From positions 3,136,001 to 3,200,000 of the forward strand of contig OZ252098.1 in NCBI GenBank assembly GCA_965248355.1: a stretch of 64,000 nucleotides of DNA, written 5' to 3'. Positions 10,877 to 51,525 of the stretch are shown one piece after another; the stretch's first letter is position 1, and every line of letters begins with the position of its first letter. This DNA comes from Candidatus Latescibacterota bacterium (GTDB lineage: Bacteria > Latescibacterota > UBA2968 > UBA8231). The position numbers and the translations under genes were made by a program. The notes under the pieces are model-generated. The model was not told where the DNA came from. It ran no database searches and saw only the letters and a program-made list of their open reading frames with translations.

Positions 10877-11914
10877 TCACACGGGCAGCTCGACCCCGAA
10901 GCCGGGGCCGCCCGTCCAGCGCGCGCGGCCGTCGCGCAACTCCCGCCCGCCGACCCACTCCATCCACGGGCGCCCGCTCTCGGCCAGGGGCTCCGGGTCG
11001 AGGGCGGCGATGGCGTGCAGCCCCCAGACCTCGGAGCCGCGGTGCGGGCAGACGCGCACGCCGTGGTCCCGCGCCAGCCGGTAGATCTCCACGAGCTGGG
11101 TCAGCCCCCCGCACCAGCAGACGTCGGGCTGGTAGATCCGGTGGCAGCCGCGGTCCATCAACTCGGCGAAGGCGCGGGCCGTGAACTCGTGCTCGCCGCC
11201 GGCGATCGGCACCGGCGAGCGCTGAGCCAGCCAGGCGTAGCCGTCGAGATCGTCGGAGGGCAGCGGCTCCTCCAGCCACACCAGACCCAGATCGGCCACC
11301 TCCTCGCACAGGGCCAGCACGCGGGCGGGGTCGGTCCAGCCCATGCCCGCGTCGGCCATGAGCTGCACGCCGCCGCCGGCCCGCTCCCGGGCGCGCCTCA
11401 GGAGGTCGGCGGCGCCGTCGTCCGGGGAGCCTGGATCGTAGCGGCCCAGGCCGCCGAGCTTCACCGCGCCGAAGCCCGCGTCAAGAGCCTCGGTGATACC
11501 CTGCAGGCCGTCCGCCCCGTCGAGGCCGGTCGTGCTGTAGGCGGGGACCTCGGCGGCCGGGGACTCGGCCAGCAGGCCGGCCACCGGCTTTCCCGCGGCC
11601 TTGGCTCGCAGGTCCCACAGGGCGAGGTCGACGCCGCTGATGGCCATGAGGGCCAGGCCCTTGCGCCCGTAGGCCAGGGTCGCCCGGTACATGGCCTCCC
11701 AGAGGCCCTCCAGGTCACTCGCGTCGGCGCCGGTCAGCAGGGGCCGCAGCTCCCGCTCGATCACGTGGATCCCGGCCGCGCCTCCGGCGCCCATGCCGTA
11801 GCCTACCAAGCCGCCGGCCTCGACCGCCACCGACAGCTGTCCCAGAAAGCCGCGCCAGTCCCGGGGCGCGCTGTCCGCCTCCGGTTGCGCGGCGCGCACG
11901 TCCGTGATTTTCAT
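10877..11914 (-). CDS. Mandelate racemase/muconate lactonising enzyme family (acid-sugar dehydratase-like)
   Basis: MKITDV start, AISGVDLALWDL, MADA, WLEEP, IAGGEHEF, QPDVCWCGG. Confidence 0.92.
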   Translation of the reverse strand: MKITDVRAAQPEADSAPRDWRGFLGQLSVAVEAGGLVGYGMGAGGAAGIHVIERELRPLLTGADASDLEGLWEAMYRATLAYGRKGLALMAISGVDLALWDLRAKAAGKPVAGLLAESPAAEVPAYSTTGLDGADGLQGITEALDAGFGAVKLGGLGRYDPGSPDDGAADLLRRARERAGGGVQLMADAGMGWTDPARVLALCEEVADLGLVWLEEPLPSDDLDGYAWLAQRSPVPIAGGEHEFTARAFAELMDRGCHRIYQPDVCWCGGLTQLVEIYRLARDHGVRVCPHRGSEVWGLHAIAALDPEPLAESGRPWMEWVGGRELRDGRARWTGGPGFGVELPV

Positions 11915-11928
11915 CCCCTCTCCTTCCA

Positions 11929-12750
11929 ATGACGATCGACGTCCTACTCCTCGGCGGCCGGGGCAGGATCGGCTCCGGCCTGCGCATGTACCTGCCGCGC
12001 CTCGACCCCGCGTACCGGTTCACCTCCGTCGACCTGCCGGGGTGCGAGGACCAGGCCACGGAGCCGGTGCCCCAGCGCGACTTCGTCGGCCTCGACATCG
12101 CCGCCGAGCCCGGCCGCGTGCGCGAGCTGATGGCCGGCCGCGACCTGGTCGTCTACCTGGCGCGCCGGGGCTCCCTGGCCGAGATGAACGCCATGACCGA
12201 CCTCGTCTTCAAGGCGGTCCTGGCCCAGGAGCCGGTGCCCATGGTCATCGGCGCCAGCTCGGTCCACGCCTGCGACGGCGCCTACAGCGTCGACGAGGGC
12301 CCCTGGTCGATCTGGGCCGAGCGCCGCTTCGACGAGCTGGACCCGGCGCCGGAGCGCGTCTCGAGCCTCATCGAGGCCTGTCCCACCAACGACTACGGCC
12401 GCGAGAAGGCCCACGTGGAGCAATGGTGCGAACGGCTGGCCGCCCTCGGCCACGGCGCCGTGGCCGCCCGCTGGGGCGGCATCAACCCGGCCAACGCCAT
12501 GACCGCGGAGAAAGGCTACTTCGCTCTCTGGTGCCACCAGGAGGACGCGGCCCGGTTCGTCCATGCATGCTGCACGGCGCACCGCAACGGAACCCTGCGC
12601 AGCGGCGCCCACTACTTCGTGGTCTCGGACAACACCCGCAACATCTTCGACATCGACCTCGCCCGCCGCGAGATCGGCTATCGGCCCGTGCACGATGCCG
12701 AGCAATTCTACTCTACGCCGGGGGGTGAGGGGCGGAAACCGCCCCATTGA
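11929..12750 (+). CDS. NAD-dependent epimerase/dehydratase (extended SDR)
   Basis: LLGGRGRIG Rossmann motif, GASSVHA, YGREK (YxxxK). Confidence 0.85.
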   Translation: MTIDVLLLGGRGRIGSGLRMYLPRLDPAYRFTSVDLPGCEDQATEPVPQRDFVGLDIAAEPGRVRELMAGRDLVVYLARRGSLAEMNAMTDLVFKAVLAQEPVPMVIGASSVHACDGAYSVDEGPWSIWAERRFDELDPAPERVSSLIEACPTNDYGREKAHVEQWCERLAALGHGAVAARWGGINPANAMTAEKGYFALWCHQEDAARFVHACCTAHRNGTLRSGAHYFVVSDNTRNIFDIDLARREIGYRPVHDAEQFYSTPGGEGRKPPH

Positions 12751-12775
12751 CGATTTCGGGATCCCTCCTTATACT
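12747..12775 (+). promoter_or_regulatory. Sigma-70 promoter of the aspS leader
   Basis: TTGACG (12747-52), 17-bp spacer, TATACT (12770-75). Predicted start about 12782, a few nt before the leader ATG. Confidence 0.75.
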
Positions 12776-12785
12776 CTCAACTCTC

Positions 12786-12848
12786 ATGAACAACAATCCA
12801 ACCAAAACTGGCGATAATAATCCGCCCGACCTATTGCGCGTGTTCTGA
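12786..12848 (+). CDS. Putative Asn/Asp-rich leader peptide MNNNPTKTGDNNPPDLLRVF
   Basis: 20 codons with 5 Asn and 2 Asp, AT-rich for this genome. Lies between a promoter and a terminator upstream of aspS sequence. Confidence 0.7.
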   Translation: MNNNPTKTGDNNPPDLLRVF

Positions 12849-12878
12849 ACGACTGACTCCAACTGTATCCTTAGATCC

Positions 12879-12913
12879 AACCCGTCGCGGGCACGCATCG
12901 CGGCGGGTTTTTT
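12879..12913 (+). terminator. Intrinsic terminator (attenuator) with an overlapping alternative antiterminator helix
   Basis: Stem AACCCGTCGCG / CGCGGCGGGTT (11 bp, one G-U), 9-nt loop, T6 at 12908-13. 12838-53 can pair with 12884-96. Confidence 0.85.
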
Positions 12914-12928
12914 CATGCCTCATGGGGC

Positions 12929-13812
12929 GTGCCGAGCCGGCTCTACCCCGGCCGCTTCTACGCGCTGCCCCAGTCGCCGCAGCAGTTCAAGCAGCTGCTG
13001 ATGGTCTCCGGCTTCGATCGCTACTTCCAGATCGCCCCCTGCTTCCGCGACGAGGATGCCCGAGCCGACCGCTCTCCCGGGGAACACTACCAGTGCGATA
13101 TCGAGATGCCCTTCGTCGAGCAGGAGGACGTCTTCGCCGTCGTGGAGGAACTCTTCTCCGGTCTGTTTCACGAGTTCACCGACTGGCAAGTGAGCGGCCC
13201 TCCCTTTCCCCGTCTCTCCCACGCCGAGGCCATGCTGCGTTTCGGCACGGACAAGCCGGACCTGCGCTTCGGGCTGGAGATCCGGGACCTGTCCCACATT
13301 TTCGCAGGCTCCTCGTTCAGGCTGTTCCGGGAGATCGTCGCCGAAGGTGGGGTGGTCCGCGCATTGTGCGTTCCCAAACTCGAGGCCCAGCCGCGCTCGT
13401 TCTTCGACGGCCTCGGGGCGTTCGTGAAAGAATCGGGCGGCCAGGGGCTGGCCTGGCTCATCAACGGGGCCCAGGCCACAGGATCGATCGCCGCGGCCCT
13501 CGAACAGAGCACGATCAGCAGCATCACCGAGGCGTGCTCAGCCGATCCGGGGTCGGCGGTCCTCCTCATCGCCGGATCGCCGGGTGAGGCGGCGCACCTG
13601 GCGGGACGGTTGCGCCTGCCTCTTGCATGCCGCAGGGTGGGATGGATGCCCTGGAGAGGCGACCGCCGCTGGAGATCAAGGCGTATCAGTACGACATCGT
13701 CTGCAACGGCCTGGAGCTGTCGAGCGGCGCCATCCGCAACCACCGGCCGGACATCATTTACAAGGCCTTCGAGATCGCCGGGTACCCGCGCCGGGAGGTG
13801 GAGCGCCGGTTT
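12929..13812 (+). pseudogene. aspS: Aspartate--tRNA ligase remnant lacking its N-terminus, an internal segment and its C-terminus
   Basis: VPSR..PGRFYALPQSPQQFKQLLMVSGFDRYFQIAPCFRDED (motif 2), FGTDKPDLR, GAD insert. After a frameshifting deletion near 13623 it resumes MPQGG...[20 protein letters not shown]. Motif 3 is absent. Confidence 0.92.
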
Positions 13813-14571
13813 GTGCCCGGGCTGCCGCTCTCGTTTCTCGACCACAACCTGGGTCGAGGAATTCACTACTGACACTCCCGAGGAACAGATTGTGCTTTCC
13901 TTCCTCGATGCTGATGCTCTGATCGGTAGAGCGGCAAAACCTCTGGCGAGGCTTGCCAATATCAACGATGCGTCGTTGCCGGATATCGAGGCCGCCCGCG
14001 AGGCGGCGCGAGAAGCCCGGGAGGCGATCCGCAGCACCGAAGTGCTTTGCGATCTGATCGCAGCACAGCCGCTTTCCGAAGACTCCAGGGTCACTCACTT
14101 CCCTTTCGAGGTCTGGAGGCAGCATCGGCAACCCGCCGTGGCAGGAAGCGACCATAGAGGAACATGCATTCTGGGCGCGTCACTTTCCGGGCCTGCGGGC
14201 TCTTTCCCAGCGCCAGCAGGAAGCGGAGAAAGCCAAGCGGCAGAAGGAGAGGCCCGACTTGGTGTCGCTCTATGAGAGCGAGGTAGCCGAGACCGAGAGG
14301 ATGCGCAAGGCACTGGTTGGTGGTGCCTTCCCCGGGATGGGAACTGGAGACCCCGATCTCTACAAGGCGTCTTGTTGGCGGTTCTGGAGGTTGACCGGCG
14401 AAGACGGCGGACGCATTGGCGTCGTGTTGCCACGTAGTGCGCTCGCAGCCAAGGGTACGACCGACTTCCGTCATACGGTATTCGGTGAATCGGAACAGGT
14501 CGAAGTCACCATGCTGCTCAACCGGGCGGGGTGGGTGTTTGACGAGGCGGAGCACCGCTACACTATAGGTC
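13813..14571 (+). pseudogene. Fragments of an Eco57I-like / type IIG restriction-modification methylase
   Basis: (F)[19 protein letters not shown] at 14124-14141 (amino-MTase motif IV), GDPDLYKA, GRIGVVLPRS. The pieces lie in different frames. Confidence 0.8.
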
Positions 14572-14942
14572 TCGAGCCGTCGGCTCGGCCCACGGGGGGT
14601 CTTCGACGCGGCGGCCATGGGTGGGGGCGGATCTCTCGGGGACAGTGCTGCAGCCAGACCGTGCGGCCGCAGACGCGGACGTCCCGCCAGCGCCGGGGCT
14701 TCATGGTCCGTACGATCTGGCCTCGCCGGCCACATTGCGGACATCGACACCCCGTCTTGTGCGGCTTCACGGCGACCACGAGGTCGCGTCCTCCCGGGCC
14801 TTCGAACCACGAGTCCGCCGCGCGGAACCCCTTGAATTTCAACAGCTTGGAGACTATCTTCCCTGCGGTCATAGGTCGGGTCTCCCTCTCTCCCGCCGGA
14901 GAGTGCTTGATGTGGTGGTAGCACCAAGCTCAGGAGTCGACC
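14572..14942 (-). mobile_element. ISL3-family transposase 5' remnant
   Basis: CRCPQCGRRG...RRWRDV.VCGR zinc-finger start, followed out of frame by PTHGRRVED.PWAEP. Truncated; outer end approximate. Confidence 0.75.
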
Positions 14943-15049
14943 TATGACCTTGTCATGTACTCACGTTTCAGCGTTGAAGAATAAGGCTGGGACTACCAAG
15001 CGAGGCTGGACGGCGTGCGCAGCCATTTCCTGGCGTGGAGGAGTCGTCG

Positions 15050-16198
15050 ATGACCCTGCGTGTCGATGTGAGACCGGAGCTGTTCCGCTGGGCGCGCGAG
15101 CGGGCGGGAGTCGAGCTGGAGGCATTGGTGAAGCGGTTTCCCAAGTACCGGGAGTGGGAGAGCGGGGAGAAACAGCCGACGTTCAAGCAACTTGAGCAGC
15201 TTGCCAACGTCACCCATGCTCCGGTCGGCTCCTTCTTCCTATCTCAGCCACTCCAGGAACCAGTCCCGATACCCGACCTGCGCACCGTCGGCAATCGCTT
15301 TGTCGGCCGACCCAGCGTCGACCTGCTGGACACCGTTTATCTGTGTCAGCAACGGCAGGACTGGTACCGCGAATACGCCCGCATGGAAGGCGAGGATCCG
15401 CTCCTCTTCGTCGGCGCCGCCACACCGGCGAGCGATGTCGAATCCACCGCATCGAGAATAAGAGCGGCTCTCGGCTTCGGCCTCGACGAACGCCGCACAC
15501 TGCGCACCTGGACCGATGCCCTGCGGGGCTTCATCGAGCAAGTCGACTCCCTCGGCGTCCTGGTGATGGTAAACGGCGTAGTCGGCAACAACACCCGCCG
15601 CAAGCTCGACCCGGAGGAGTTCCGAGGCTTTGCCCTCGCCGACGACCTCGCGCCCCTCATCTTCATCAACGGCGCCGACACCAAGGCAGCGCAGATGTTC
15701 ACCCTGGCGCACGAACTGGCCCACATCTGGCTCGGGGAATCGGCCCTGTCCGACGTCGAGCCGGCCTCGATACCCTCTCATCAAATAGAGATGTGGTGCA
15801 ACCGCGTGGCGGCGGAGCTCCTCGTTCCCCAAGGGACGCTACGTGAAGCCTATCGAGGGTGGGAGGACCTGGCGACCCAGCTAAGCCGCTTGGCCCGCCA
15901 TTTCAAGGTGAGCACCCTCGTCGTTCTTCGCCGCATCTTCGACATCGGCGCAATCGACCGCGGCGAGTTCGATCTGGCCTACCGGCGAGAGCTGGATCGC
16001 TTACTGTCCATGGCAACGGCAAGCGGCGGCAACTTCCATCCAACTCTGAAGACGCGGGTCGGACAGAGGTTCGGCCGCGCGCTGGTCGCCTGCACGTTGG
16101 GAGGCAGAACTTCGTTCTCCGAGTCCTTCCGCCTGCTCGGCATCAAGAAGCCAGCGACCCTGCGCGAGTTCGCGGCAAGCCTGGAAGTGGGTTCGTAG
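15050..16198 (+). CDS. XRE-HTH plus ImmA/IrrE family Zn metallopeptidase
   Basis: LFRWARERAG...WESGEKQPTFKQLEQLA HTH, FRGFAL, FTLAHELAH (HExxH), EMWCNRVAAE. GGAGGAG SD. Confidence 0.92.
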   Translation: MTLRVDVRPELFRWARERAGVELEALVKRFPKYREWESGEKQPTFKQLEQLANVTHAPVGSFFLSQPLQEPVPIPDLRTVGNRFVGRPSVDLLDTVYLCQQRQDWYREYARMEGEDPLLFVGAATPASDVESTASRIRAALGFGLDERRTLRTWTDALRGFIEQVDSLGVLVMVNGVVGNNTRRKLDPEEFRGFALADDLAPLIFINGADTKAAQMFTLAHELAHIWLGESALSDVEPASIPSHQIEMWCNRVAAELLVPQGTLREAYRGWEDLATQLSRLARHFKVSTLVVLRRIFDIGAIDRGEFDLAYRRELDRLLSMATASGGNFHPTLKTRVGQRFGRALVACTLGGRTSFSESFRLLGIKKPATLREFAASLEVGS

Positions 16199-16693
16199 AT
16201 GGCGTATCTCCTCGACGCCGATGTCTTCATACGCGCAAAGAACCTGCACTACGGCTTCGACTTCTGTCCCGGATTCTGGGAGTGGCTGATTCAGGCCAAC
16301 GCCCAGGGACGAGTCTTCAGCATTGAGAAGGTCGGGGACGAGATCAAGGCGGGAGACGACAAACTCGCCAAGTGGGGAAAGAAGCGCGGCGAGGGTTTCT
16401 TTCTCGCGCCAACGCCCGCGGTGCTCGAAGCACTTGGAAGAGTGGCGGATTGGGCGAACAGCCAGGACTACCAGCCTACGGCCATCGACACGTTCCTTCA
16501 GGTAGCCGACTACTACCTGATTGCCCACGCCCTGGCCTGCGGCTATGAGGTAGTTACCCACGAAATCCCATCCTCGTCCAGGAACAGGATCAAGATTCCC
16601 AACGTCTGCATCGGTCTTTTCGTCAAGTGTCTGACACCGTATGAGATGCTGCGCCGGGAACGGGTGCGGTTGGTATTGGGGGCCGCTGCATGA
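16199..16693 (+). CDS. DUF4411 family PIN-like protein
   Basis: YLLDADVFI..KNLHYGFDFCPGFWEWL, ADYYLIAHA, VVTHE, IKIPNVC. Confidence 0.88.
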   Translation: MAYLLDADVFIRAKNLHYGFDFCPGFWEWLIQANAQGRVFSIEKVGDEIKAGDDKLAKWGKKRGEGFFLAPTPAVLEALGRVADWANSQDYQPTAIDTFLQVADYYLIAHALACGYEVVTHEIPSSSRNRIKIPNVCIGLFVKCLTPYEMLRRERVRLVLGAAA

Positions 16694-19579
16694 CCCGCGC
16701 ACCCTCGTTCATTGACAACCGGAACGGCAACACCTTGGCACAGGCCCTGGGTACCCTACTGGGTGTTGGGCCGGCCGCCGCAATGGGGGCGCCGTCAGAT
16801 AAGCCCGATCAGGTCAGCATCGCCACGGCCTTTTTCAGCCCCACTGGTTTCGCACATGTCGCCGATCAACTGGAGGAGGTTCCAGAGGTTCGCCTGCTGC
16901 TTGGAGCGGACCTGGCCGCTGGGGCGGTGGAGCACCGCAAGCCTCTTGACGAGACACCGGAGAGCTTTGAACGAAGGCGGATCGAGGTGGGCCTGAGGAG
17001 TATGGCCGAAGGGCTGGAGCGAGACCGCGATCACCTGCCCTTCAATCGCACGAGCGGCGCGGCCTTGGGCAAGCTGATCGCGGCGCTTCGGGCCGGCAAC
17101 ATGGAAGTACGGCGCTACAAGAAGGCGTTCCTGCACGCCAAAGCGTACATCTTCACTTCCGGATCTGACGGAAGCGCGGGACCTGAAGGGATCATCGCCG
17201 GCTCTTCCAACCTGACGGGCGCAGGTTTGACCACGAACCTGGAGCTCAACCTCGGCCGCTTTGATCGACCTGTGGTCGAGGCGGCCAATCATTGGTTCAA
17301 CGAACTGTGGGAGGAAGCCGAGCCCTACGATCTGGCACGACTCTTCGCGGTGGCATTCGAGGCCGGTCACCCTGGGATATCTTCATCCGGGTCCTGTGGC
17401 AGCTCTACGGGGAGGAGGTCCAGGAGGACGCGCAGACGGATGCAAACCTGCCACTGACGAGCTTTCAGAAACACGGCGTTGCCAGAGCGTTGCGGCTGAT
17501 GCGCGATACCGGCGGTGTGATCGTCGCCGATGAGGTGGGACTCGGGAAGACCTTCATCGCCGGTGAGATCCTTCGCCTCTACCGAGAAAGTCGACAGCGG
17601 GCGCTCCTGATCTGTCCGGCGGCGCTGCGGGACGGTATGTGGAGGACATTTCTGAGTGAGTTTCAGCTCTATGTGGAATACCTGTCCTTCGAGCAACTGG
17701 CGAACGACAGACAACTTCGGGACCGGCAGCGCCCGAATGCGGACCAAGCTCATCTTCAGCGATCCCTTGACGAATATCAGCTCGTCATCGTCGACGAGGC
17801 GCACAATTACAGCAACCCTGACGCGCCCACGCGGGCCGCTGCGCTGCGCCGGCTTCTCTTCGGACGAAGGCGGGATCTTCTTCTGCTCACCGCCACGCCG
17901 GTGAACAACTCGCTTTGGGATCTCTACCACCTGATCCGCTTCTTCCTGCGCCAAGACGCCCACCTTGCCGGCCGCGGCATCCTCTCGATCCGCGAACGCT
18001 TCGAACACGCCATGCGGGTGGACCCGTCCAGATGGCGCAGGAGCACGACACCTTTCTGGAGGCGCTGGACGTCGGTTCCGTCGTCACGACGGCCTTCCTT
18101 CAGGAGATTTCGGGTGACGACGAGACCGTCTTCGAGGATTTTCTGAGAGCGTCGGATGACCGCTCTGAAGCGGCACTCTACGATGTCCCCCGGTTGCGCG
18201 CCGCGGTAGAGCAGGATCGCGATCTACTCCGTGGTCTCGCGGACGAGGCGCGGTCGATCACTGCCGACCAGGACCCCAAGCTGAAAGCCTTGTCCGATGC
18301 GCTGGCGGAAATCGCTCAACAGGCGGAAGGGGAAGCGATCGACAGTGCGGACGAAGGGCAGAAGCGGAAGGTGCTGGTCTTTTCCTTCTTCGAGGACACC
18401 GTCGAGTGGATCCGGGATTTCCTGCGACGAGAGGTCGCCGGACGACCCGAGCTCGCCGGCTACCGGGATCGCATGGTCGCGGTCAGCGGCTCGGGGGATC
18501 TGGACGAGCCTTCACGCCAGCGGGCGGTCCAGGGTTTCGCGCCAGTGTCCATGCAGGCACCGGCCGGACAGGATGCGGATCTCTACGACCTCATGATCGC
18601 CACGGATGTGCTCGCCGAGGGGGTGAACCTTCAGCAGGGCCGGCACATCATCAATTTCGACCTGCCCTGGAACCCGATGCGGCTCGTGCAGCGCCACGGC
18701 CGGATCGACCGGATCGGCAGTCCTCACAGCCAGGTATTCCTTCGGACCATCTTTCCCGCCGATCGCCTCGACTGCCTGCTGAACCTGGAACAACGGATCC
18801 TGGGGAAGCTGGAAGGATGCGTCACTCTACGAGCGCGGGGGCAGCGCGGGGGAAGCGCGGGCGCCGCCCAGACCGGGGAAGAGTATCGGCAGACCCTGCG
18901 CAAGGCGCTCGATGTGAACCGGGAGCGCATCACCGGGACGCCGTGGAAGGTCGGCTCGGGCATGGTCAAGGGCAGGCATCGGGGGGTGTTCTTCTGTGCG
19001 GTAGTGGGCGCCGAGACCGAGTTTGAACGAACCTATCTGCGCTTCATTCCCGCCGGTGAGGATTGGGCGCCCGCCACAGGCAGCGGCATGGAGCGCGAGC
19101 TTGGCACCTGTCTCCGGCTCATTGAGTGCGGTGAGGAGACGCCGCCTTGGTATCCTCGTTTCCTGCGAGAGAGGGCATACGACTTCTGGGAAGTAGCCCA
19201 GCACGACATCTGGACCGGCTGGATGCGCGAGACCGACCCGGCGAATCTGCAGCCCCCGGTCCACCCTCTGAACCACCGCGTGGCGGAGTTCATCCGTAGC
19301 CATCCGCCGCTGAATGTGTCCGAGGACCGCGTGAACCGGGCACTCGATATCCTCGAGTCGCCCTGGCCCCGGCGCGACGAGATCATGCTGCGGAACTGGT
19401 TCGGGTCCAGAGAATCCCAGGGCTCGGGGCTCGCGGGGTTTCTGATCGACCAAATCCTCGAGACCGGTCTCGAAGCAACCATGCCGCCTCCGCCACTGCC
19501 CCCGATCGAACAAGAGGAGGTCGAGCTTCTCTGCTGGATGGGGATAGAACGCGAAGACGGCGCGGAAGAGTTGCAATGA
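16690..19579 (+). pseudogene. PLD-nuclease domain plus SNF2-like helicase, frameshifted and internally deleted
   Basis: IATAFFSP, LHAKAY, AGSSNLT (PLD). ADEVGLGKT, VDEAHN, LTATP, TDVLAEGVNLQ, INFDLPWNP, QRHGRIDRIG (helicase). Breaks near 17365, 18030 and 18812. Confidence 0.88.
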
Positions 19580-19911
19580 CCAGCGTCACCGACACACTCA
19601 TCCACCAGATGGTCCATGCAATCGTCGAGGAGGTCGATCCCGAAAGGGTGATCCTCTTCGGGTCCCGCGCCCGAGGCGAAGAGCAACAGGGATCGGACGT
19701 CGATCTGGTGGTCGTGGAAGCCGAGCCGTTCGGTCCGAAGCGAAGCCGCCACAAAGAGATGGTCAGGCTCTACAAGGTCCTGGCGGACTTTCCCGTGTCG
19801 GCCGACGTCCTGGTCTATTCCCATGATGAGGTCGATTACTGGCGCGACTCCCTCAACCACGTTCTGGCGCGGGCGCTGCGGGAAGGGAAAGTGCTCTATG
19901 AGCGACCCTAA
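19576..19911 (+). CDS. Minimal nucleotidyltransferase (MNT)
   Basis: VILFGSRARG....SDVDLVVV, ALREGKVLYE. Confidence 0.92.
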   Translation: MTSVTDTLIHQMVHAIVEEVDPERVILFGSRARGEEQQGSDVDLVVVEAEPFGPKRSRHKEMVRLYKVLADFPVSADVLVYSHDEVDYWRDSLNHVLARALREGKVLYERP

Positions 19912-21208
19912 GGCACTGCGCAGAAATAAACGCTGTTCTTTCTGATAGAAAGGTGTTATCCTTGACGGGTGGACACGGAAAGCACCCTGCGGGCGAAATA
20001 CGAAGCCTTGACGCCGGTGTTGAACGAGCGCACGCGACGCTTGTGGGCCGCGTCGGAGGCGCAAGCCCTGGGACATGGCGGCATTGCGGTGGTGGCCCGT
20101 GCGACGGGCCTGTCGCGGACCCGGATCGCTCGCGGCCTGCAGGAACTGCGGTCGGACGCCCCGTTGGACTCCGGCCGTGTGCGTCGGCCGGGCGGCGGCC
20201 GCAAGCGGCGCGTCGACACCGACGTGACGCTGTTGTCGGACCTCAACGCCCTGCTCGAGCCGGTCACCGCCGGGGCGCCGGACGACAGCCCCTTGCGATG
20301 GACGTCGAAGAGCGTCCGCAAGTTGGCGGTCGAGTTGCAGGCCCTGGGCCATTCGGTGAGTCCTGGCCTCGTCCACGGACTGTTGCACGAGCTCGGCTAC
20401 ACGCTGCAGGCGAATCGCAAGACGAAAGAAGGCACGCAACACCCGGATCGGGACGCCCCGTTTCACTACCTCCACGACCAGGTCCGAAGGGCCCAGGCCC
20501 AAGGCCAGCCGGTCATTTCGGTGGACACCAAGAAGAAGGAGCTGATCGGCGACTTCAAGAACGTGGGTCGCCAATGGCGTCCGAAGGGCGAGCCGGAGCG
20601 CGTGAAGGTCCACGACTTCATCATCCCGGCCCAGGGCCAGGCGATTCCCTACGGGGTCTACGACCTGGGCCGCAACGAGGGCTGGGTCAGCGTCGGCGTC
20701 GACCACGACACCGCCCACTTCGCGGTGAACGCCATCCGCAGCTGGTGGAAACGCATGGGTCGTCCGGCCTACCCGGCGGCCTCGCACCTGTGGATCACGG
20801 CCGATGCGGGGGGCCGCAACGGTCCGAGACTGCGGCTGTGGAAATGGGAATGGCAGCGCTTGGCCGATCGCACGGGCCTGACGATCACGGTCTGCCACTA
20901 TCCTCCGGGCACGAGCAAGTGGAACCGCATCGAGCATCGCCTGTTCTCCTATATCGCCATGAACTGGCGAGGCCAACCTCTGGTCAGTCTGGCCACGGTG
21001 GTCAACCTGATCGGCCGGACGACAACGAAGAAAGGGCTTCGCGTGCGCGCCGAGATCGACAAGCGAGCGTATCCCAAGGCCGTGGTCGTCAAGGACGAGC
21101 AAATGGAGCGGATCCATCTCTCGCCCCATGCGTTCCACGGGGATTGGAACTACACGATCCGGCCGGCCACTGAGGGTTGAAGTGAATCATCTGTTTCGGG
21201 ACAAAGCC
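19912..21208 (+). mobile_element. ISAzo13-family IS, 1297 bp, TAA target duplication
   Basis: Imperfect IRs GGCACTGCGCAGAAATA / GGCTTTGTCCCGAAACA. TAA at 19909-11 and 21209-11. Confidence 0.9.
19969..21180 (+). CDS. ISAzo13-family DDE transposase
   Basis: LNERTRRLWAA, ISVDTKKKELIG, ITADAGG.N, HYPPGTSKWNRIEHRLF, FHGDWNYTI. Confidence 0.92.
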   Translation: MDTESTLRAKYEALTPVLNERTRRLWAASEAQALGHGGIAVVARATGLSRTRIARGLQELRSDAPLDSGRVRRPGGGRKRRVDTDVTLLSDLNALLEPVTAGAPDDSPLRWTSKSVRKLAVELQALGHSVSPGLVHGLLHELGYTLQANRKTKEGTQHPDRDAPFHYLHDQVRRAQAQGQPVISVDTKKKELIGDFKNVGRQWRPKGEPERVKVHDFIIPAQGQAIPYGVYDLGRNEGWVSVGVDHDTAHFAVNAIRSWWKRMGRPAYPAASHLWITADAGGRNGPRLRLWKWEWQRLADRTGLTITVCHYPPGTSKWNRIEHRLFSYIAMNWRGQPLVSLATVVNLIGRTTTKKGLRVRAEIDKRAYPKAVVVKDEQMERIHLSPHAFHGDWNYTIRPATEG

Positions 21209-21781
21209 TAAGTGCGCCCGGATGCTGCTCGGCGCGGCCGAACGCGATGTCCTCACGCTCAGGAACATGACGTCCGGGGTGCCGGACGAATCGTATGGAT
21301 TCCACCTGCAGCAGGCAGCGGAAGAGTCCTTCAAGGCTTGGCTCGCACTGCTGGGCGAGACGTATCCGCTTACCCACAATCTCGAGGCGTTGGTGAATAT
21401 CCTCGCTTCGCGCGCTCTCGACATGATGGCTTTTCGGAAGCTGGTCGTGTATACCCCATACGCCGTCGAGTTCCGATATGGGGGTGTCGATTCGGGTACC
21501 GAGCCGATCGACCGTATGAGCGCGCTGGCCCTCGTCGAGGCGTTGCTCGAGCAGGTCCGGCGCGAGTTGGAAACGGTGGAGAGGAATGATGACCAGCGGG
21601 GGGCCTGCCCCCCCGACTGAGCACCGGCAGCCTCTCAGCGAAACAGCCTCAGGGCTCCGCGTTCTCTTCCGTTCAAGCCCCCGAAGAAAGTCTCAACACC
21701 CGGACGGCGCCGTTCGTCGTCAGGTAGGAGAGCCGGCGCCCCGGATGGGCGATCGCCAGGGCCCCGGCCGCACTCTCCAGC

Positions 21782-35068: not shown

Positions 35069-35495
35069 TAGGAAGAATGAGGCACCTTTCTGGACTCTCG
35101 GTCAAGGCGCTGAGCGCACCGTTAGGGTCAGGCAGCTCCCTGAGGATCGGTTGCCAGTCCTTCGACCGAGATCGCAGTACAGTTTGGTTGCCTGTCGGCC
35201 CGTATCCGGATCAATCGGGGGCCTGAGGGACCGTTGAGGGCACACCCCGCCGTACGCCCGGCGACGGCGACGGGTCGAGAAGGCAGGTTCAGGCGGCGAA
35301 CTCGAACAGTGGCTCAGGCGGGGCCCTCGGCGGGGGCATCTCCGGCAGCCCTACCCTCTCCAGATAGGTCCGGATCGAGGCCGGATCGGTCAGGGCGGCG
35401 ATGATTCTCAGGTCGGAGGAAAACACCCGCGCCAGCAGGGTCGCCCACCGCAGCCGATGGCCGCAGGAGGCAGCGCTCGCATCGCCGTCTGCCGC
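35069..35495 (-). mobile_element. IS91/ISCR-like relic: transposase 3' end (about 35495..35289) plus oriIS-like end
   Basis: WATLLARVF..DL/RIIAALTDP..IR..L..VGLP..PPPRAPP, with the usual CxxC missing. Ends ...CATTCTTCCTA on the minus strand. Confidence 0.7.
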
Positions 35496-36627: not shown

Positions 36628-36683
36628 TAGGAAAAATGAGGCACCTTTTTGGACTCTCGGTCAAGGCGCTGAGCGCACCGTTA
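36628..36683 (-). repeat. Second copy of the 56-bp oriIS-like end
   Basis: 54/56 identical to 35069-35124. Reads ...TTTTTCCTA(TAC) on the minus strand and contains a GCGC-TGA-GCGC hairpin. Confidence 0.8.
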
Positions 36684-39544
36684 GGCTTTGTCCCGAAACA
36701 GATGATTCACTTCAACCCTCAGTGGCCGGCCGGATCGTGTAGTTCCAATCCCCGTGAAACGCATGGGGCGAGAGATGGATCCGCTCCATTTGCTCGTCCT
36801 TGACGACCACGGCCTTGGGATACGCTCGCTTGTCGATCTCGGCGCGCACCCGAAGCCCTTTCTTCGGGGTGTAGCCTCGGTTTTACGCAGCCGTCTTGTC
36901 GGTCTGTTGTGTAGTCTGATGGAGGTACCAGTTCCAGAAGGCCTCCCATCGTTGGGATTGCACGTGGACTCGTAGATTGAGGATCTGCTGGCCTCCTTGG
37001 CGGGTCCAGCGCATGCCGCTGCGTTTGAGTCGATGGCCGACCAGGGTCTTGGCGGCGGCCTCCACGGGACCACTGGAGAGGATCAACCCCGAAGCGCGAT
37101 AGCGCGCGTAGTCCATCTTGTCCCGGTTGTTCCGGAAGTAGCCCAGCTCGGTGGTCACCTGACGATGGCGTTGGGAGCCGGGACGAAGGTTGCGGCGGTG
37201 GTAGGCCAGGGAGCGGATCAGGCCCTGAACGGCCCCGGGCTCATGACGCAGTTTGTGCCGCCAGGATCGGTACCAGCGAGCCGCTTTCGACGACCGCTTG
37301 CCGAAGAGGGGCTCGGCGGCCTTTGACAGGTGGTGGGCCGCGTGATAGAAGTCGAGAATCCGGGTGAAGCCGTCGAACACCGGCTGCCGATCCACGCTGC
37401 GCCAGATCTGGCGCTGGCCGTCGGCCAACACCACCCGGTGGTCATACTCCCCCCGCTGCAGGGCCCGGGCCGTCTCCTCCACCAAGCCGTGGACCAGGGT
37501 CTTCATCTTGGGCTCCGGCATGCGCGCGGCGTAGCGCACATCGACGCGTTGGGGGTCTTCCGTCGCCGGGTCCAGCGGCGTCCCATACGTGGCGACCATC
37601 CCTACCCCGGCCTCCTTCCAGGCGGTGGGCGCGCGGTCGGGGTCGGGATCCGTCGGTCGTTCGGCGGGCCGTCCGCGTTTCGGCGCCGGCTCCCGCAGCG
37701 GCACGGTGACGCCGTCCCAACTGACCACCAGGGTGTCGCCCTCGGTCTTTAGGGGCGCCGCCTCCTGCAAGGCCAGCTCGAGTTGCTCGGCGTGGTCCTC
37801 GGCGTACTGACCGACGGTGGTCAACAGATGCTGAATGGCGGTGCGCGACGGGGACGCCGGCAACAGCTCGGCCAAGCTGGCCTCGACTTCGGCCGGGACC
37901 AGGCGGGCGCCCAGAAAGGCCGTGAAACGCTCCAGCGCCGGCACCATGAATCGGTGGACCATGCCGCAGCGCTCATCCAAGGGCACCCGGCTGGGGCCGC
38001 CCCGATCGGGCTGATACAGCCGACGCGGCACCTGGACCTTGCCCCACAGGGTCATCCACTCCTTGTCGACCACCTGCTTGAACCGGTAGACCCGACCGTG
38101 GTGGATCACGGTGTCGTCGGCGATCTCGCACGCCTGCGCCAGCCGTTGGAAACCGATTCGACCGAGGTCGTCCAAAGCATCTCGCAACTCGCTCACCCTC
38201 TCGCGAAAGTCCTCCGGGCCGGCCTCCGGGGATTGCAGGCGATGCTCCCACTGGAGGACATTTTCCTCGAACTTTGTCAGGCGAGCGTGAAAATCCTTCG
38301 TATCTTCCATCAGGGACCCCTTTCCGGGTTTGGGCGTAAGTCCTTACACCCAAAGATACATTCGTGCCCGGACTTGGGGTCCCCCTTTTATCGACAATCT
38401 GCGTAAAGTGAAGGCTACACCCTTTCTTCGTTGTCGTCCGGCCGATCAGGTTGACTACCGTGGCCAGACTGACCAGAGGTTGGCCTCGCCAGTTCATGGC
38501 GATATAGGAGAACAGGCGATGCTCGATGCGGTTCCACTTGCTCGTGCCCGGAGGATAGTGGCAGACCGTGATCGTCAGGCCCGTGCGATCGGCCAAGCGC
38601 TGCCATTCCCATTTCCACAGCCGCAGTCTCGGACCGTTGCGGCCCCCCGCATCGGCCGTGATCCACAGGTGCGAGGCCGCCGGGTAGGCCGGACGACCCA
38701 TGCGTTTCCACCAGCTGCGGATGGCGTTCACCGCGAAGTGGGCGGTGTCGTGGTCGACGCCGACGCTGACCCAGCCCTCGTTGCGGCCCAGGTCGTAGAC
38801 CCCGTAGGGAATCGCCTGGCCCTGGGCCGGGATGATGAAGTCGTGGACCTTCACGCGCTCCGGCTCGCCCTTCGGACGCCATTGGCGACCCACGTTCTTG
38901 AAGTCGCCGATCAGCTCCTTCTTCTTGGTGTCCACCGAAATGACCGGCTGGCCTTGGGCCTGGGCCCTTCGGACCTGGTCGTGGAGGTAGTGAAACGGGG
39001 CGTCCCGATCCGGGTGTTGCGTGCCTTCTTTCGTCTTGCGATTCGCCTGCAGCGTGTAGCCGAGCTCGTGCAACAGTCCGTGGACGAGGCCAGGACTCAC
39101 CGAATGGCCCAGGGCCTGCAACTCGACCGCCAACTTGCGGATGCTCTTCGACGTCCATCGCAAGGGGCTGTCGTCCGGCGCCCCGGCGGTGACCGGCTCG
39201 AGCAGGGCGTTGAGGTCCGACAACAGCGTCACGTCGGTGTCGACGCGCCGCTTGCGGCCGCCGCCCGGCCGACGCACACGGCCGGAGTCCAACGGGGCGT
39301 CCGACCGCAGTTCCTGCAGGCCGCGAGCGATCCGGGTCCGCGACAGGCCCGTCGCACGGGCCACCACCGCAATGCCGCCATGTCCCAGGGCTTGCGCCTC
39401 CGACGCGGCCCACAAGCGTCGCGTGCGCTCGTTCAACACCGGCGTCAAGGCTTCGTATTTCGCCCGCAGGGTGCTTTCCGTGTCCACCCGTCAAGGATAA
39501 CACCTTTCTATCAGAAAGAACAGCGTTTATTTCTGCGCAGTGCC
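36684..39544 (-). mobile_element. Second ISAzo13-family copy (inverted), interrupted by ISKra4
   Basis: Same IRs and transposase as 19912..21208 with a few substitutions. TTA on both sides. Confidence 0.92.
36867..38422 (-). mobile_element. ISKra4-family IS, 1556 bp (transposase 38310..36883), 8-bp target duplication
   Basis: IRs GGGTGTAGCCTCGGTTTTACGCAG / GGGTGTAGCCTTCACTTTACGCAG. TTTCTTCG at 36859-66 and 38423-30. Motifs WDG, LADG..IW, LDFYHA, SGPVEAA.K...RLKRSGMRW. Confidence 0.9.
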
Positions 39545-39678
39545 TTAGGTGCAATACAGCCGTCGAGCGTACAGCAGGGTGAGGATCCTCCATCAATGCG
39601 TCCAAGTCGCCCGAGACCCGATCCACTAGATCAGGCCGGGCACCAACGAGGTCCATGAGTACTTTTGCCGCATCTACA

Positions 39679-48865: not shown

Positions 48866-51525
<2,660 letters not shown>

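Follow-up and report, generated by a model that had tools for sequence, protein, structure and literature searches.

The 64,000-nucleotide stretch considered here (the window), from contig OZ252098.1 of a Candidatus Latescibacterota bacterium, contains a compact element between an epimerase-like gene (11929-12750) and the remains of aspS, the gene for aspartyl-tRNA synthetase (AspRS). The element consists of a promoter, a short open reading frame (ORF) with many Asn and Asp codons, and an intrinsic terminator that competes with a second helix (Table 1). Its conserved adjacency to intact aspS in relatives identifies it as the leader of that gene, and the comparative evidence makes it probable that this 5′ regulatory leader of a bacterial-type aspS acts as a ribosome-mediated transcription attenuator.

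The promoter, with the hexamers and 17-nt spacer given in a preliminary description of this DNA, has 10 of 12 matches and is the sole sigma-70-like site in 11000-15000 (shuffle mean 0.2). At the homologous site it lies above the scan threshold in three of the four aligned DNA copies of the element, that of the relative L002 falling below. The mini-ORF, nearly leaderless as first described, begins 11 nt past the −10 box with no Shine-Dalgarno sequence, and five of its codons specify Asn and two Asp (7/20). The terminator, with a folding energy of −20.3 kcal/mol, has the T6 run that had been reported; the 11-bp stem originally claimed is counted as 12 pairs in our scan, including an A-U pair at the base. 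The mutually exclusive helix was also found as described: 12838-12845 pairs with 12889-12896 and 12850-12853 with 12884-12887 (12 pairs, two of them G-U; −13.0 kcal/mol alone), and the leader stop codon lies within its internal loop. No further copy of the element occurs in the window at ≤3 mismatches. The complementarity between the upstream leader and the terminator (−30.7 kcal/mol against a shuffle mean of −24.4) is borderline, being equalled by 53 of 1000 shuffles, and the fold of the whole leader is unremarkable (z = −1.13). The structural case made by the window alone is only moderate.

Table 1. Features of the leader element and of the aspS remains in the window
Feature	Position	Strand	Remarks
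−35 hexamer TTGACG	12747..12752	+	shares bases with the stop codon (TGA) of the epimerase-like gene; invariant in 4/4 aligned copies
−10 hexamer TATACT	12770..12775	+	TACACT in L067 and L001, TACCCT in L002
Leader mini-ORF MNNNPTKTGDNNPPDLLRVF	12786..12848	+	20 codons plus TGA (12846-12848); ATG at 12786
Small hairpin GGCG/CGCC	12810..12826	+	Asp-Asn-Asn codons form the loop, Gly and Pro-Pro codons the arms; 23/24 cells paired
Asp-Asn-Asn codon triplet (GAT AAT AAT)	12813..12821	+	always Asn/Asp in 7/7 variants; proposed main sensing codons
Region 2, GCGTGTTCTGAACGAC, antiterminator 5′ strand	12838..12853	+	includes the leader stop codon; one A more than relatives
Region 3, terminator 5′ arm and loop	12884..12896	+	partner of region 2; loop GG here, AA in relatives
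Intrinsic terminator	12879..12913	+	stem 12879-12909, 12 pairs (8 G-C), 7-nt loop, T6 12908-12913
Deletion junction	12914..12928	.	breakpoint not placeable to the base
aspS pseudogene remnants	12920..13813	+	residues 180-417 (12920-13633) and 455-516 (13627-13812, different frame)

A scan of genome contigs with the epimerase-like protein as query gathered 69 loci, the three closest of which (L001, L002 and L067; 86-87% protein identity to the query) carry the element at 82-83% identity to the window by blastn. In all three, homology to aspS, which starts at 12928 in the window, resumes 569-570 bp further downstream of the element than it does in the window, and an intact aspS of 586 codons directly follows the element. 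NF001750, which has a cut-off of 443 bits, assigns the product as aspartate--tRNA ligase at 795 bits. In L067 the aspS ATG (11863) is located 34 nt past the U run and is preceded by a GGGAGA Shine-Dalgarno sequence. What precedes the element varies. L067 and L001 have an MNT/HEPN pair there, and L002 has an insert of 1.8 kb that carries a PIN-like ORF; in the window the epimerase gene adjoins the element directly. Because these upstream neighbours differ while aspS stays, the element travels with aspS. The original adjacency, which the preliminary description had inferred from the codon match, is thus borne out, and in none of the three relatives does the element precede an unrelated gene. The other 66 of the 69 loci have neither aspS nor the element, and a covariance model (R1) run on the window and the 69 loci (1.25 Mb) returned only its four training copies and one match of E = 0.6.

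The differing content of the interval between the epimerase gene and the leader (10801-12518 in L002, 10905-11640 in L067), with PIN-like and MNT/HEPN toxin-antitoxin-like cassettes, respectively, gives it the appearance of an insertion hot spot. The notion that the element is part of the region downstream of the epimerase gene, with an island inserted after it, was rejected, as the synteny refutes it.

The relatives also show a fuller form of the leader. Their ORF is 28-30 codons long (that of L067 reads MIMMTRQNACTHNNPANPGDNNPPAPLRVF), and the RNA folds into four segments, as in a trp-like leader. Region 1 (CGUCAGAACGC), which spans the codons Arg-Gln-Asn-Ala, is a pairing partner of region 2 (GCGUGUUCUGACG), made up of the last codons and UGA; the antiterminator formed by regions 2 and 3 has 13 bp, in blocks of 8 and 5 pairs separated by one bulge; and the terminator formed by regions 3 and 4 has 12 bp followed by U6, ending 34 nt before the aspS start. 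The relatives come closer than the window copy to the trpL-type geometry first claimed, because region 1 is kept there and deleted in the window. The window leader is without 24 nt that cover all of region 1, a deletion that is in frame; two U-A pairs have become U-G, region 2 has its extra A, the spacer hairpin is lost, and the antiterminator is reduced to 12 weaker pairs. With region 1 lost, the antiterminator weakened and aspS dead, the window copy is a decaying relic.

Selection on the structure is suggested by the distribution of changes among the three relatives. The stretch from region 2 to the terminator (81 columns) is 96.3-98.8% identical, compared with 88-93% for the leader ORF and 75.3-83.4% for the four-fold sites of aspS. 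Across the four copies, the terminator cells are paired in 48 of 48 cases and the antiterminator cells in 52 of 52, and in the relatives 32 of 33 core cells of the region 1:2 helix are paired; an intrinsic terminator was called in every copy. The sole informative change, AA to GG in the terminator loop, retains pairing with the UU of region 2. Of all the evidence, this conservation in relatives argues most strongly for the reality of the element.

Several properties of the ORF bear on whether it is coding. A single frame is open, all four DNA copies share the TGA that closes it, and the 24-nt indel of the window preserves it. A search with the 47-residue frame translation of the leader gave one match (P0121), and a representative protein search gave four, from which P0122 and P0124 were used, P0123 (4550 aa) and P0125 (711 aa) being set aside as long proteins and not leaders. 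The three further leader peptide variants from the protein databases (P0121, P0122 and P0124) all end in ...NPPAP(S/L)RVF. The triplet before Pro-Pro consists of Asn and Asp in all seven variants (DNN in four, DDN in two and NNN in one), two other peptide columns also alternate between Asn and Asp, and the DNA changes at the triplet are synonymous (GAT/GAC, AAT/AAC). The Asn/Asp codons of the preliminary description are thus conserved, with changes that are either synonymous or within the Asn/Asp pair. The content ranges from 5 to 8 such residues in 20-30 codons. The richness is not an effect of composition, as only 7 of 20000 composition-matched shuffles reach the count of the window; the figures are 7-12 of 20000 for three copies and 263 of 20000 for L001.

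The Pro-Pro that follows the triplet (12822-12827 in the window) is invariant in the seven variants. Its place in the 3′ arm of the small hairpin may be the sole reason for this; alternatively, ribosomes may pause there during translation.

A comparison with the E. coli trp leader, trpL, is helpful in considering how the element could work. There, a promoter-proximal mini-ORF contains codons for the sensed amino acid, the RNA forms alternative 1:2, 2:3 and 3:4 pairings, and a ribosome at the stop codon blocks region 2. The aspS leader has a mini-ORF with codons for the amino acids proposed to be sensed, a 1:2 helix, a 2:3 antiterminator, a 3:4 terminator with a U run, and a stop codon at which a ribosome would block region 2. 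It differs in that it precedes an aminoacyl-tRNA synthetase gene and not a biosynthetic operon, that the codons are Asn and Asp, that the main codon cluster lies 3′ of region 1 and not within it, that the stop codon is inside region 2, and that there is almost no 5′ untranslated region (UTR) and no Shine-Dalgarno sequence.

In the mechanism that we propose, a sigma-70-type promoter would start a transcript in which a few bases precede the 28-30 codon ORF, whose 5-7 Asn and Asp codons include the invariant triplet with Pro-Pro after it. Region 2, which would contain the UGA and the last part of the ORF, could pair either with region 1, within the ORF, or with region 3 to form the 13-bp antiterminator; region 3 could otherwise pair with region 4 to form the 12-bp terminator with U6. 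With Asp-tRNA(Asp) and Asn-tRNA(Asn) in good supply, the ribosome would reach the stop codon and cover region 2, the terminator would form, and aspS would not be transcribed. When they are scarce, the ribosome would stall at or before the triplet, leaving region 2 free to capture region 3, and RNA polymerase would enter aspS. The anatomy, the codon pattern, the conservation and the adjacency are observed; the translation of the ORF, the stalling and the regulatory outcome are inferred.

Folding models agree with the placement of the codons. Nascent transcripts that end at the terminator loop were folded once for every codon, with 29 nt blocked there to represent the ribosome. For both L002 and L001 the antiterminator (12-13 pairs) is predicted when the A site is at any of the 22 codons up to the second Pro, and at most 4 antiterminator pairs are predicted at each of the seven later A-site positions, including the stop. 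For L067 it is predicted at 16 of the 22 codons, or at all 22 when a trailing ribosome covers region 1, and for the window at all 14 codons up to the second Pro and at none afterwards. The modelled switch point is directly after the Asn/Asp triplet and Pro-Pro; in these folds, the triplet is therefore the final site at which stalling keeps region 2 available for pairing.

A number of observations weigh against attenuation by a translating ribosome. The leader has no Shine-Dalgarno sequence, and the ATG is 10-11 nt past the −10 box, which predicts a 5′ UTR of just ~3-4 nt. The variable sites of the ORF show no preference for the third position of the codon (4 of 28 at the first, 3 of 28 at the second and 5 of 28 at the third), which indicates that the peptide as such is not under selection; this is expected of a leader peptide, yet it equally fits a non-coding RNA. 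The RNA stems alone can explain the invariance of the Gly, Pro-Pro and Arg-Val-Phe codons. The main triplet is at least 32 nt 3′ of region 1, and a ribosome stalled there leaves region 1 uncovered, unlike in trpL. When the full-length RNA is folded to minimum energy with a ribosome at the triplet, the 1:2 helix and the terminator are still favoured, and the free leader of L001 is already antiterminated in its minimum-energy fold. Because these full-length folds are less tidy, the model depends on the co-transcriptional order of folding, which is itself inferred. The preliminary description had suggested seeking a conserved Asn/Asp-rich upstream ORF and covarying stems in front of aspS orthologues; the ORF is there, and covariation was not demonstrated, only one pair having changed on both sides and 114-123 of 500 shuffles scoring equally, because the four sequences are too close. 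Moreover, the element is known from one narrow lineage only, as four DNA copies and three peptides. Finally, that the regulated AspRS is non-discriminating, i.e., also charges tRNA(Asn), is assumed.

Among the alternatives, the most serious is a terminator/antiterminator switch that does not depend on translation, in which a protein (for example AspRS itself, in thrS-type autoregulation) or an uncharged tRNA chooses the fold and the ORF is incidental. The lack of a Shine-Dalgarno sequence, the very short 5′ UTR and the absence of third-position bias are all compatible with such a switch, and the conserved small hairpin presents the Asn/Asp triplet in a loop that could serve for binding. On the other hand, the changes in this loop keep a RAY codon pattern, the frame is maintained across the 24-nt indel and in all seven variants, and the stop codon lies exactly within region 2. 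No Rfam family matches the window or the intact leader of L067, and the T-box riboswitch model in particular has no match at E up to 10 in 11500-14500 of the window or 11550-11950 of L067. We consider a translation-independent switch unlikely.

It is conceivable instead that the element is an independent small gene, for a peptide of 20-30 residues or a small RNA of ~130 nt, that is next to aspS by chance. It has its own promoter and terminator, and it has been kept in the window despite the death of aspS. However, the element is always directly 5′ of aspS and co-oriented with it, no separate aspS promoter was found in scans of 2900-3800 bp, the peptide is poorly conserved outside the Asn/Asp and stem-forming codons, and no further copy was found in the 1.25 Mb of DNA; a chance neighbour is accordingly quite improbable. 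Still less credible, to the point that we give it hardly any weight, is the fallback offered in the preliminary description, that the hairpin is simply the terminator of the epimerase-like gene, with the promoter, ORF and competing helix arising by chance. The borderline complementarity and ordinary whole-leader fold of the window would suit it, but it is contradicted by synteny and conservation: the MNT/HEPN pair (in L067 and L001) or the 1.8-kb insert (in L002) parts the epimerase gene from the element, which stays with aspS and is far better conserved than neutral sites. Overall, the sequence comparisons support the attenuator interpretation that was first put forward.

Three further candidates were examined and rejected. 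With regard to a tRNA, tmRNA, small RNA or island attachment site, there is no tRNA or tmRNA in the window and no Rfam match. A minus-strand ORF of 67 aa (12716-12916) has no homologue. A search for plasmid-borne copies gave only chance matches of 20-30 nt, none of the 13 records covering 80% of the query.

Other systems resemble the attenuator proposed here in different respects. The pheM leader of pheST is an example of leader-peptide attenuation at a synthetase operon. In mycobacteria, polycysteine leaderless short ORFs were reportedly shown by Canestrari in 2020 to be cysteine-responsive attenuators; like the ORF of the aspS leader, these are short, lie at or close to the transcript 5′ end, have no Shine-Dalgarno sequence, contain consecutive codons for a single amino acid class and control what lies downstream, whereas the aspS leader has a canonical intrinsic terminator and antiterminator, and its target is a synthetase. 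The T-box leaders of Firmicutes likewise involve a choice between terminator and antiterminator 5′ of a synthetase gene that reports tRNA charging; they differ from the aspS leader, which has no T-box match and for which sensing is proposed to occur through a translating ribosome and not by direct tRNA binding. In the available part of one source, most synthetase genes of Firmicutes are described as T-box regulated and none as regulated by classical attenuation, while classical attenuators are predicted for trpS2 and leuS in Streptomyces, with pheST in gamma-proteobacteria also noted (PMC1262725). These last systems are like the aspS leader in that leader-peptide attenuation with cognate codons is applied to a synthetase gene. 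They differ from it in the enzyme, in the two amino acids of the codon set and in the phylum, the present records being labelled Gemmatimonadaceae or Latescibacterota, and no likeness of sequence would be expected.

With respect to aspS itself, a motif with a terminator is predicted upstream of the gene in Shewanella and called a ‘tRNA synthetase leader’, with no mechanism given in the portion of the source available (PMC2659441). The accessible portions of PMC4833913, PMC13402693 and PMC4206432 contain nothing specific on aspS leaders. Our full-text literature searches, which did not cover supplements, turned up no report of leader-peptide attenuation at aspS, nor of any such attenuator with Asn/Asp codons, in agreement with the preliminary description, which knew of no characterised example for this gene. 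From the sequence evidence and the literature searched, the element looks like a leader-peptide attenuator with an amino-acid specificity and a target not previously described. If this is confirmed, classical attenuation would extend to a little-studied and mostly uncultivated lineage, attenuators would gain a new amino-acid specificity, and regulation would reveal whether an AspRS acts on tRNA(Asn) as well as on tRNA(Asp). The window copy also illustrates how a regulatory leader decays after its gene dies.

A more elaborate scenario can be built on attenuation, and we regard it as possible but doubtful. In this scenario, an Asn-dominated sensor would adjust a non-discriminating AspRS to the amount of Asn-tRNA(Asn) supplied by the indirect, tRNA-dependent route; Asp and Asn codons would be interchangeable reporters of one enzyme, Pro-Pro would be a built-in pause that times the ribosome relative to RNA polymerase, and aspS would be an accessory, starvation-induced copy. 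Interchangeable codons would explain the drift among DNN, DDN and NNN, and an accessory, starvation-induced aspS would explain why the lineage of the window could lose the gene. The AspRS fragment of the window matches a discriminating (1EFW) and a non-discriminating (5W25) structure with equal scores, and the part of PMC4206432 available to us provides no usable sequence rule for separating the two types.

The aspS remains in the window have the identity that the preliminary description gave them: 12929-13600 matches the tRNA-synt_2 (class II catalytic core) and GAD domains and aligns with residues 185-393 of Thermus thermophilus AspRS. Relative to the 586-residue AspRS of the relatives, the gene is a pseudogene with at least three lesions, codons 1-179 being gone, 418-454 gone together with a change of frame, and 517-586 gone. 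Comparison with the relatives indicates that the sequence lost at the deletion junction comprises ~20 nt of 5′ UTR with the GGGAGA Shine-Dalgarno sequence, the ATG, and aspS codons 1 to ~179. A deletion of roughly 590 bp removed the aspS start and these codons, with the further lesions downstream of it. Since aspS is a pseudogene in the window, the element cannot regulate anything useful there. No other piece of aspS was found in the 64 kb, from which it follows that this genome must rely on an AspRS gene elsewhere.

The upstream junction has features of its own. The G+C content changes at about 12700, from 72-77% on the left to ~62-66% on the right. Most homologues of the epimerase-like protein stop ~10 residues sooner than the protein encoded here, whose gene has, within 12713-12750, a 5-nt duplication (TCTAC) that shifts the frame, adds ~10 residues and brings the gene to its end at the TGA inside the −35 box. 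The database proteins P0005 and P0013 share this epimerase C-terminus or continue into the leader, which indicates that the junction of epimerase gene and leader is present in other genomes.

Downstream of the aspS remnant, 13814-19572 is a lower-GC insert that is absent from the relatives. It includes a zinc-ribbon fragment of an ISL3 transposase (14558-14872, minus strand), an IrrE-like M78 peptidase and DUF4411 pair (15035-16693), and the three overlapping ORFs (16690-19579) of a disrupted PLD-SNF2 helicase gene. The insert is followed by an MNT/HEPN toxin-antitoxin-like pair (19573-21617), interrupted by an ISAZ013-family insertion sequence (19907-21211). The order of the MNT/HEPN and leader-aspS blocks is swapped, the pair being upstream of the leader in L067 and L001 and downstream in the window.

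A second, inverted copy of the ISAZ013-family insertion sequence is found at 36681-39549, its arms 100% and 99% identical. It is interrupted by ~1.55 kb with an ORF of 475 aa (36886-38310, minus strand) that has no Pfam match. In a low-GC stretch beside it there is a 58-nt direct repeat (35069-35126 and 36628-36685), the copies of which are 97% identical and 1559 bp apart. Finally, two 59-nt copies that are 92% identical and 69 nt apart (50246-50373) are located in or beside a gene for a MacB/FtsX-type permease on the opposite strand.

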